A stretch of 54,325 nucleotides of DNA from Gemmatimonadota bacterium. GTDB taxonomy: Bacteria; Gemmatimonadota; Gemmatimonadetes; Palauibacterales; KS3-K002. Position numbers: made by a program. The DNA lies in assembly GCA_039586795.1 (NCBI GenBank), contig JBDHJS010000022.1, positions 1 through 54,325 of the forward strand, written 5' to 3'. Below are positions 42,001 through 45,000 of this stretch, piece after piece. The stretch's first letter is position 1. The number at the start of each line of letters is the position of its first letter.

Positions 42001-45000
42001 CGCCGGTCCGGACCCGGCTCCCGAGCCATATACACAATCAACGCGATGGACCGGGGCCAGGCGGCCTCGCCCGTTAGCGTCTCCCCGTCGACGGTAATCG
42101 ACGTCCGCCCTAGTGTCCGAATCTCTATCATTACAGGGTCCTGGTGGGGTCTCGGGTTGCCCGCCCCCTGCAAATTGTCGTTCTGGGCGGTAATCGACAA
42201 GACGGCAGGCTTGGGGTGGACGGTAACCGGTGGTAGACGGTGGACGGTGGACTGTAGACAGTGGAACGCTGGTCAGTAAGTCCGGATACGCCACTCAACC
42301 GTCCACCGTCTAGCGTCCACCTACCGTCCACCTACCGTCCACCCCAACATGACCGCCCACATGACACCTCCCCCAGCCCGCCTGATAGCCACCTGACCGC
42401 CCGCATGATCGGCCTGTCCTATTATGGAACGTCCGGTTGGGCAGCCGATTCGGACGTGAGGATTCAAGACGAAGTCTCTTAGGAAGTACGTAGTCGTAGT
42501 TGGCTTGAGACAGCAGTTTTCCCTCACTGGAGGCTTGTCCGCACGCTCGCCCTTCCGGGTCCCCGGTCGCTTTGGGGACTTCCTCCTCTGCCCATTTTGC
42601 ACCCGCAAGGATGCGGCGAGTCGGGCGGACGAGCCTCCAAACCCCCACCCTGGGCTTCAGGGCTCAGGCAGAAGTTGGTGAGGAGTTAGGATTGAAAGGG
42701 AAAAGTAGGGAATACGACAGCAAAGCCCGGCCAGAATGCCCGAGTCTCCTTACATGATAGGGTACATGATAGGGTACGCCCGCAGCATGATCGCCACATG
42801 ACCGACTACATGATAGCCCCACCCTATGTTTCCCCTCGACTTGACCCTGGAGTGAGCCCTTAGGGCTCGGAATCTTCCGGAGGCTCGTTCAGGAGTTCTG
42901 CTTCCAAAAGTCTGTTTAAAGACTACCTCAGCTGTCCCACCTGCCCGCTGTGGAAGCAAACGGAACTCGAGAACGAGCCTCCGTTCTTTTTGAACCTCAC
43001 CCCCCACTCCCTACCCCCTACCCCTTACCCGCTACCGCTTTCACCGCACCGTCGGCCCGAAGATAATCCCATTCAAGAACAGCCTATCCAAAGACGGCCA
43101 AAGCAGCCTAAACGTCGGGTCGTCCGCAAACATGATCACCCGGCCCCCGCCGATCGGCTCATCGATCATCCAGGCCGTATCCTTCAGGAACTTCACCGTG
43201 TTGTCGGACCAGATGTGGCCGGTGATGTGCAGGTTGTCGCCGACGAAGGCGACGGGGTTGGCGCCCTCTTTCGACGGATGGTAGAAATCGCTGCCTGAAA
43301 CGAGGACCGGCAGCACATCGGTCTCGTAGCCGAACGTCATGGGGCTGGTCAAATCGAGGGAGGCCCGCATGATCGCGCCCGGGACGCGGATCGGCTCATC
43401 CTCGCCGCCAGCCGTCATCACGCCGCCGGCGTACGCCGCCTGCGGCAACCCGACATCGCGACTGCCGCCGTCTTCGCCGTCATCTTCTTCTGCTCCAACA
43501 CGGCGCGCGCTTGTGAACTCCGCATCGACGAAGTAGCCGGCCGCGTTGCCCAGCGCGATCACCACGCCGCCGCCCTGGATCCATTCCTTCAGCCGCTCGC
43601 CGTTGCCGAAGGCTCGACGATAGCCCCAACCGGACGGCAGCACGATCACGTTGAAGTCATCGAGCGAGTTGGCCAGGGTCTCCAAACGCACCGGCGTGTA
43701 GGGCACAGCGTATTCTCGGTCCAACGTGTACCAGGTGGCGCCGAACGCCGTCGCGCTGACACCATCGCCAGCGGCCAGGGCGACCTTCGGCCGTTCGAGG
43801 GTCACCACCGGATTGGACCCGATCCCTGTCGGCCCCTCCTCGTAGTAGCCGGTGTGCACCGCATCGACCGGGACGCCGAACTTCCGGGCGAGGACGTCGA
43901 TGCGATCGTGAAGGGTGTCCGGGTTTCGATTCACACGGAGCAGCAGCGTGCCTCGCGCGTACGTCGCACCTCCAGCCCGCATCTGCTGCGTCGCGGCGAC
44001 AACCTTGAAGCCTTCCTTGAACAGGGCAAAGGCGAGCCGCGCCGATGCGTTGCGATCGTAGCGGAAGACGTAAGCCGTGTTCGCCCGACCGCCCCGCACT
44101 CCGCCGTCGACTCCGCCGCGGAGCGCTTCAGGCAGCGATCCCATGTCACGGGCGCCCAGGTAGGCCGGCGGCCGCCATGCTTCGTCGCGCTCGTTGAATT
44201 CGACTTCAAGCGGTTGGGCAGCGACACGACCGGCGCTCTCCAACCAGTAGGCCTCGACGCCATATGAAAGAGGGAGACTCCACGCCGTGACATCGTAGAA
44301 CTGTGGCCATTCCTTCGGCACCTTAGCGCCGCGCAGCGCGTTCCGCGCTCGCCGCTGGTTCTGGAGCTCCAGGAATTCGGGCTCCAGACCCGCTTCCGGC
44401 GCCATCTTCGATTCGAGCAGGCGCGCCTGAGGCTGCGCCATGTCGATGATGTAGCTGCCCGCCGGGAACTCACGGCGCGACGAGGCTCCGTTGACGTAGT
44501 CGTGAGCGTTGCCGGAGCTGAACGACTCGGTGGCGACGCTCACCTCGATGTCATCACGAAGCAGGATCTCCGCCAGCTGCGCCGCCCGCTCGGGGTCCGT
44601 GCCCGGCACGACGACGAAGCGCTTCCACGCCTTCGACGCCGCGAATTCGTTCATCCCGGAACGGAAGAAATCGTAGTAGTCGTTGAGCGCGGCCTCTCGG
44701 TTCTCACCCAACGTGCTCAGCGTGGCCAGCGATGCCGTGAAGTGTTTGGCGATTCCGTCCGTGAACGTGAGCACCGTGCCGTCGTCACGGACCCAGGCGT
44801 AGCCACGGTAACCGCCGCCATCCGTCTCGTAGGTCATCCCGATGGCGCCGTTCAGCGCTGGCCAGCTGTCCCAGTAACCCGGGTAGTGAAGATCGAAGAC
44901 ATCGCGGACGAAGTAGTTCCAGCTGTAGCGATCGAACGCCGCGCCGTTGGCCCGCCCATACATGTCCGTCCAGCGTTGCACCCAGTCGCTAGGCAGGCTG

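Follow-up and report, generated by a model that had tools for sequence, protein, structure and literature searches.

The window (the whole stretch of 54,325 nucleotides that was analysed) belongs to genome G000 of the family Palauibacterales; KS3-K002 in the phylum Gemmatimonadota, and it was compared with a set of 31 family genomes and 114 sister-family genomes. Two related structured RNAs, RNA-A and RNA-B, lie in tandem between a divergent regulatory gene and a convergent peptidase gene. The features of the locus are as follows.

40740..42131, minus strand: BTAD/SARP-like regulator of 463 aa, with a SARP-type N-terminal region, one transmembrane helix and a weak TolB_N-like C-terminal part; divergent from the RNAs.
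42347..42409, plus strand: direct-repeat array 1, five repeats at spacings of 12/21/11/12 bp; candidate activator sites for RNA-B.
42420..42425, plus strand: -10 box of the RNA-B promoter, 10 bp past the last repeat core.
42529..42638, plus strand: sibling RNA-B, with the RNA-A scaffold, a diverged C-rich loop and an anti-SD-like run; predicted 5' end at about 42432.
42752..42814, plus strand: direct-repeat array 2, five repeats with the same spacing chain as array 1; candidate SARP-type activator sites for RNA-A.
42825..42830, plus strand: -10 box (TANNNT) of the RNA-A promoter; predicted start at about 42837-42839.
42838..42878, plus strand: variable 5' leader with a small hairpin at 42854-42868; genera g4 and g5 have a 35-aa membrane-peptide ORF in its place.
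42879..42982, plus strand: structured body of RNA-A, three stacked stems closing a junction, from the fold and covariation.
42909..42924, plus strand: junction hairpin with a variable loop, from the fold and alignment.
42924..42950, plus strand: invariant module, a 4-bp stem and a 14-nt C-rich loop that is predicted to be open, from alignment and folding.
42931..42951, plus strand: predicted seed, 42939-42951 against the anti-sigma leader and 42931-42951 against the M50B leader over a 1-nt bulge.
42984..42991, plus strand: U-rich tail, the probable 3' end in G000; other genera carry a terminator hairpin as a separate element.
43041..45806, minus strand: M14 peptidase gene, a convergent bystander found at 4 of 24 loci.

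RNA-A is a genuine plus-strand hairpin RNA of one uncultured Gemmatimonadota family. The rod-like fold that a preliminary description had proposed was reproduced for 42872-43003 on the plus strand, with a folding energy of -55.8 kcal/mol, a z-score of -7.1 and none of 200 shuffles as good; the minus strand of the element folds too (z -4.05). Covariation also held in an alignment of 24 sequences, compared to 17 before, with 29 consensus pairs, 10 of them with double-sided changes, where 30 and 9 had been reported. Four measures of the signal lay above all 500 shuffles and a fifth above 497 of them, and the signal also exceeded all slid controls. The invariant segment, previously put at 35 nt, shrank to 26 strictly invariant positions out of 27 at 42924-42950, and the inner 4-bp stem of this module never varies and thus gains no support from covariation. 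Across the alignment 48 G.U cells were counted on the plus strand against 4 A.C cells, which fixes the plus strand. Strand and ends, earlier regarded as uncertain, could both be settled from this pattern together with the promoter geometry and the terminator-like ends. As already stated in the preliminary description, the element has no Rfam match (Rfam 15, gathering threshold).

The 22-nt core was again found in 24 of the 31 family genomes, exact in all 24 and not only in 23, and the reversed control gave 0 matches instead of the 1 in 145 noted before. Restriction to the family was borne out by a covariance model built from the 24 copies, which matched 24/31 family and 0/114 sister-family genomes. 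When model R3 was run on 150 other genomes of the phylum, with 24 candidates scored per genome, no credible homologue was seen; the sole weak match outside both families lay within purB-purC coding sequence and was rejected. The earlier claim of a single copy does not strictly hold. Five of the 24 genomes contained a second core match at 2 mismatches, four being a true paralogue and one a chance match in a coding region, and G000 itself has two further siblings (42529-42638 and one on contig C70); three sibling types occur overall. The second core match of G022 and a match in G029 were dismissed as chance.

RNA-B folds with a z-score of -4.6 and scores 26.7 bits with covariance model R1. It has its own repeat-array promoter in tandem with RNA-A and a conserved leader hairpin; homologues occur in G009 and G030, and G024 carries a related copy. 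The third sibling (G000:C70:27005-27097, L290; also L289) lies between two conserved genes with identical promoter spacing and has a counterpart with matching gene context in G027. Of 10 g4 genomes, 4 (L025-L028) have a short paralogue with the RNA-A seed directly behind the stop codon of a membrane-protein gene; this paralogue has no repeat array and is possibly a 3' UTR-derived RNA. The entire BTAD/RNA-B/RNA-A locus occurs a second time, as a g1-like copy, in one g4 genome (L036, contig C361 of G009), reflecting either a binning error or transfer. Pyrimidine-rich, low-complexity short repeats flank the RNA-A/RNA-B pair (window 42200-42345 and 43000-43050) and gave only chance matches to miRNA models.

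The promoter had been called weak in many copies, yet the same architecture of repeats and -10 box was present at 24/24 loci. All 24 RNA-A copies are preceded by 7-nt direct repeats, whose 97 intervals include 61 of 11 bp, 7 of 12 bp and 24 of 19-22 bp. A TANNNT hexamer stands 10 bp after the last 7-nt repeat core at every one of the 24 loci, as compared to 0-2 loci for each other spacing from 5 to 16. The pattern was also recognised at 21 of 22 exact metagenome matches, and a strict scan of G000 found 6 such repeat promoters and none in the reversed genome. From this arrangement, the RNA-A promoter appears to be of the SARP type. The U-tail had likewise been described as weak; a terminator-like end was found at 24/24 loci: a strong hairpin 6-15 nt past the body at 22 and a U-run at the other 2. 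The G000 locus is one of the latter, and its transcript is thus predicted to span about 42838-42991 (~155 nt). The body of RNA-A has no ORF and forms its own predicted transcription unit. Between promoter and body, 11 of the 24 loci (L003-L013, in g4 and g5) encode a hydrophobic membrane peptide of 35 aa with no NCBIfam match. The g4/g5 transcript, with this ORF, a hairpin over its SD region and RNA-A, may possibly be dual-function.

For expression, 4 of 11 listed RNA runs were compared, with contigs that carry no strand or end information. RNA-library contigs from two studies covered RNA-B without mismatch (42451-42764 and 42445-42691), beginning 13-19 nt downstream of the predicted start, and a 254-nt RNA-library contig of a relative, from one study, terminates in the RNA-A core. 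RNA-A of G000 was represented by two 151-nt records at a depth of 2, which extend upstream of the predicted start, so that DNA or read-through could account for them. Parts of the locus had no RNA-library cover, which does not argue against expression. Taken together, the cover gives a hint that these RNAs are expressed, though DNA may be its source. Other repeat promoters of the same type were seen in the window at 32965-33319 and 50702-50978, and in G000 at C74 1006-1371 and C54 5262-5319. The ORFs behind them are small, 64, 51 and 65 aa, with a short motif common to two; the two small ORFs lying in the window had no Pfam match. Repeat-array promoters of this kind would define a regulon of small proteins and sRNAs.

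The protein encoded at 40740..42131 matched Pfam BTAD (E 7.6e-15) and, below cut-off, TolB_N (E 0.001); residues 6-234 matched the AfsR chain 8hvr (E 0.001), and a hydrophobic helix lies at 283-301. An orthologue occurs in 27 of 31 family genomes, namely all 24 that carry the RNA and 3 more, and in 0 of 114 sister genomes. The preliminary description had the neighbouring genes change from locus to locus, but this BTAD gene is divergently adjacent (within 1.5 kb) at 16/24 loci and the same downstream gene is found at 14/24. At the 8 loci where the orthologue is not adjacent, it lies 4-11 kb off in 4. G000 has 19 BTAD genes, and the window contains two further BTAD-like genes, near 33457 and 37265. 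On adjacency and co-distribution, the divergent membrane-anchored BTAD protein is the most likely activator of RNA-A; the many BTAD genes of G000 and the 8 loci without adjacency speak against it. The earlier reading of a free-standing plus-strand sRNA thus survives, resting on the promoter, the terminator, the G.U pattern and complementary sites in other genes, whereas the argument for it from a single copy among changing neighbours largely does not: the RNA is linked to the BTAD gene, it has siblings, and it is predicted to be cotranscribed with the 35-aa ORF at 11 loci.

Targets were sought in the 3914 genes of G000, called in the present analysis. Gene-start windows contained 3 perfect complements of at least 13 nt to the module, compared to 0.1 in shuffles (P 0.005). 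Ranking by energy only was dropped in favour of exact-match and orthologue tests; in the top 1% of that ranking RNA-A went slightly beyond 8 shuffles and RNA-B not at all. The best-conserved candidate target, on contig C20 of G000, is a zf-HC2-like gene directly downstream of a SigW-like ECF sigma gene. Its matches are below cut-off both in Pfam (E 0.002) and to an NCBIfam anti-sigma model (E 6e-8), and from these sub-threshold matches and the gene order we infer that its product is an anti-sigma factor. A perfect seed complement of 11-15 nt, at -16 to -20 from the AUG, was found in 25 of 27 full family orthologues; one of the remaining two has a G.U change and the other is decayed (G018). Two additional partial or distant zf-HC2 matches in the family had a 10-nt complement and none, respectively. 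In the sister family, 0 of 21 homologues (21 of the 44 found were examined) had even 9 nt, though the upstream promoter motif was kept. Conservation is 26-27 of 27 sequences within the site and 11-21 of 27 for most of the positions immediately upstream. The predicted pairing yields -27.8 kcal/mol against opening costs of 6.3 for the RNA and 4.9 for the leader. Of 27 loci inspected, 2 of which are truncated, none has a seed site ahead of the sigma gene itself.

A second leader with the site, on contig C48 of G000, belongs to an M50B peptidase gene, in which 20 of 23 family copies have a complement of at least 12 nt, 2 have one G.U and 1 lacks it, compared to a 10-nt complement in 1 of 27 sister genes (27 of the 94 found, one window probably misplaced). 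Here the predicted duplex reaches 20 bp over a 1-nt bulge, with each of the four letters occurring at the bulged base. With G018 set apart, 21 sites contain 391 Watson-Crick pairs, 29 G.U pairs and 0 mismatches; 21 of the 29 G.U cells are at one fixed position, which reduces them to about four independent wobble events. G018, which has neither the RNA nor the regulator, has decayed sites, its M50B site showing 6 mismatches with 12 nt kept. Intact sites also occur in four genomes with no detected RNA, namely G029, G012, G016 and G025, which are 65-87% complete. The genomes are kin, so all these counts are overstated, and with an invariant seed no covariation of RNA and target could be observed. 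Seed sites before YggT, a DUF4097 gene, a second zf-HC2 gene and an efflux adaptor were found in 1-3 genomes each.

Across 124 genomes, the 11-nt seed pattern was not commoner in raw counts than its reversed control. The complement extends beyond the 11-nt pattern in 33 of 83 family matches as compared to 2 of 47 sister matches (47 of 165 examined). The motif GAAAC-N16-18-CGTA precedes both main targets, and from the ECF consensus and its position after the sigma gene we take it to be an ECF promoter. It lies within 130 nt upstream of 34 of the 83 family seed matches, which fall in about seven orthologous groups and are not independent, and of 1 of 47 sister matches; on the opposite strand the count was 0 of 83. 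The distance from promoter to seed site ranges from 7 to 86 nt. About 50 ECF-type motif matches were seen in G000, most of them upstream of genes that, judged from their translations, encode permeases, PadR-like proteins and exported proteins, making a large envelope regulon probable. For RNA-B and the C70 sibling, the target search gave only SD-like or chance matches. Pairing of RNA-A with 16S rRNA was rejected, the longest complement being 7 nt at the locus with the partial 16S of G000. Overall, the most plausible role of the invariant loop is that of an antisense base-pairing seed.

In g4, a non-coding RNA or leader behind an ECF-type promoter starts with a 16-17-nt seed complement (L116, L121, L297, L299, L303, L307, L309), and a similar leader was seen in L147 and L158. 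This RNA or leader folds its seed complement onto a downstream C-rich strand and is a candidate sponge that would close a feedback loop. In four g4 genomes (L144, L148, L305, L308), two convergent genes have between them a terminator hairpin with a 13-nt seed complement just 5' of it, a possible 3' end target or sponge.

We consider it probable that RNA-A is a trans-acting base-pairing sRNA with SARP-type activation that works without Hfq, blocks translation of the anti-sigma factor and tunes the ECF regulon. A SARP-type activator, with the divergent BTAD protein as the candidate, would bind the 11-bp repeats and switch RNA-A on. By folding, the stems would keep the C-rich loop open, and the loop would be the first part to pair with G-rich sites in mRNA leaders. 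The 3' part of the seed is held in the 4-bp stem, and since the target repeats RNA-A's own stem strand, loop pairing followed by strand displacement is a natural route. The target would then displace the 4-bp stem to form 13-21 bp, with no need for Hfq; Hfq was found in 0 of 5 genomes (4 family, 1 sister), in which the positive controls were detected. Placed by comparison over the anti-sigma SD, the duplex would block translation, lower the level of anti-sigma factor and loosen the negative feedback on sigma. M50B, YggT, the efflux adaptor and the ECF-driven non-coding leader, likewise behind the ECF-type motif, share the site and could be under control of either sign. In this way, RNA-A probably links a membrane sensor to the stress response as a switch.

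A wider role was considered in connection with the signal recognition particle (SRP). The Ffh M domain was found in 0 of 31 family genomes as compared to 79 of 85 sister genomes. G000 showed no SRP GTPase domain, FtsY or SRP RNA, and SRP RNA was absent from 5 more genomes. In G000, purA adjoins rpsP directly (contig C80, 72069-74128) at the place where the sister family has ffh. Judged by gene content, the whole family is without a signal recognition particle and the loss is family-wide; complete SRP loss has been noted for Leptospira in the available text of PMC10066597. The sRNA family could have arisen on this SRP-deleting branch and be a dedicated envelope switch, in which a membrane-spanning SARP sensor makes the RNA, toehold capture of the 5' ends of ECF-sigma transcripts silences the anti-sigma factor and frees sigma, membrane-protein messages are throttled, an ECF-driven RNA acts as the sponge, and the whole offsets the missing SRP. 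As a complete scheme, we regard this as doubtful.

The same sites could also be paired with the opposite outcome, the transcripts being stabilised or activated, for example by shielding the anti-sigma 5' end, so that sigma would be dampened and not released. The anti-sigma site begins at the predicted 5' end, 7-9 nt past the -10 motif, and this suits such a role, as does the M50B site, located in the 5' UTR 30-50 nt upstream of the AUG. Blocking the M50B site changed the predicted accessibility of the start site from 0.44 to 0.48, raising it in 6 of 22 cases and lowering it in 1, and with a result this flat the control there could be of either sign. In the anti-sigma leader of about 20 nt, however, the only SD-like sequence falls within the predicted duplex, which stops 3-7 nt short of the AUG, as in the repression of flgM in C. 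jejuni (in the available text of PMC11187230), and stabilisation is unlikely. Repression of the anti-sigma factor by RNA-A thus remains our preferred reading.

The leader motif might instead be a protein-binding site, in RNA or DNA, with a minus-strand decoy, or the match to the loop might be incidental. The folding of the minus strand, which would show the same motif, and the persistence of sites in some genomes with no detected RNA would agree with this. The promoter and terminator are nevertheless oriented along the plus strand at all loci, the G.U excess over A.C favours that strand, and the changes in the targets are those that pairing with the plus strand tolerates, including the free 1-nt bulge. 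With the variable distance between site and promoter also counting against it, we find this account quite improbable. An even smaller chance is given to a cis element or a type I antitoxin tied to the upstream small membrane peptide of some genera: the ORF is conserved between promoter and RNA at the 11 g4/g5 loci and one type of paralogue follows a membrane-protein gene, but the ORF is absent at the other 13 loci and, where present, lies on the same strand and in the same transcript, no plus-strand gene lies before the terminator, and complementary sites are in unlinked genes. It is least likely of all that RNA-A is a remodelled housekeeping RNA, either a stand-in for SRP RNA or an unrecognised 6S RNA, as one might suppose from its rod shape and similar size, from the lack of SRP RNA, FtsY and a 6S match in G000 and from its presence in the family without Ffh and absence from the sister family with it, because that co-distribution amounts to one branch and hence a single event, the SRP RNA of the sister family has the canonical form, precedes dnaX and has neither a motif nor a locus in common with RNA-A, no Ffh is left as a binding partner, and RNA-A has a regulated-type promoter, siblings with differing loops and an mRNA-complementary seed. 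Identity with SRP RNA was rejected directly, as there was no RF00169 or RF01854 match, domain IV motif, Ffh partner or ffs locus, and so was identity with 6S RNA, with 0 matches to RF00013 at E 10 in G000 and the long upstream duplex arm missing from the fold.

No sRNA study of Gemmatimonadota was found in the literature, including the available text of PMC10469786, with the supplements of motif-discovery papers outside the scope of the search. In mostly non-subscription literature, no report was found of sRNA control of an ECF anti-sigma factor or of a SARP-type promoter driving an sRNA, and no description of SRP loss was found in the Gemmatimonadota literature. RNA-A would then represent a new sRNA family acting like the known anti-sigma-repressing sRNAs, in a circuit for which we found no description. 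The precedent for sRNA control of an anti-sigma factor is flagellar FlgM. What emerges is a near-complete, testable circuit of sensor, promoter, sRNA, seed and targets in an almost uncultured phylum, and all of its parts could be rebuilt in a laboratory strain. The clean loss of SRP in the family is a separate finding of interest in its own right.

OmrA and OmrB of E. coli reportedly repress FlgM. In Campylobacter jejuni, the sRNA FlmE (CJnc230) pairs at the flgM ribosome-binding site and represses the anti-sigma factor FlgM, according to the available text of PMC11187230. Like FlmE, RNA-A is predicted to pair at the ribosome-binding site of an anti-sigma gene and would thereby free a sigma factor. 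In contrast to FlmE, OmrA and OmrB, its target would be the zinc-finger anti-sigma factor of an ECF sigma factor and not flagellar FlgM; it also has a putative SARP-type promoter, a closed 5'-3' stem and a seed in a loop, and no sequence relation to these RNAs was found. Its promoter resembles the AfsR-afsS and other SARP promoters of Streptomyces, which have repeats 11 or 22 bp apart, a fixed short gap to the -10 box and an adjacent activator (available text of PMC10936776). The RNA-A locus shares the 11-bp repeats, the fixed gap to the -10 box and the adjacent SARP-domain gene. In SARP promoters the 3' repeat is 8 bp from the -10 box, whereas the distance in RNA-A is 10 bp from the 7-nt core and becomes 8 only if the repeat is taken as 9 nt. 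Unlike AfsR-afsS, the putative activator is membrane-anchored, has a TolB_N-like outer part and belongs to Gemmatimonadota, and the product is a non-coding RNA.

MicA and RybB act with Hfq. Both are sRNAs of the sigmaE envelope-stress circuit (available text of PMC13501541). The sigma factor drives their synthesis and they silence porin mRNAs, whereas RNA-A would stand upstream of or parallel to its sigma factor and target that sigma factor's regulon. RNAIII, RsaE, LhrC and the cuckoo RNAs direct C-rich loops against G-rich leaders, occur as sibling copies and optionally carry a small-peptide ORF. RNA-A resembles them in its C-rich loop, its siblings and its optional peptide ORF, and it differs from them in having no Rfam match and in a predicted seed that is a specific sequence of 13-21 nt and not a short anti-SD motif.
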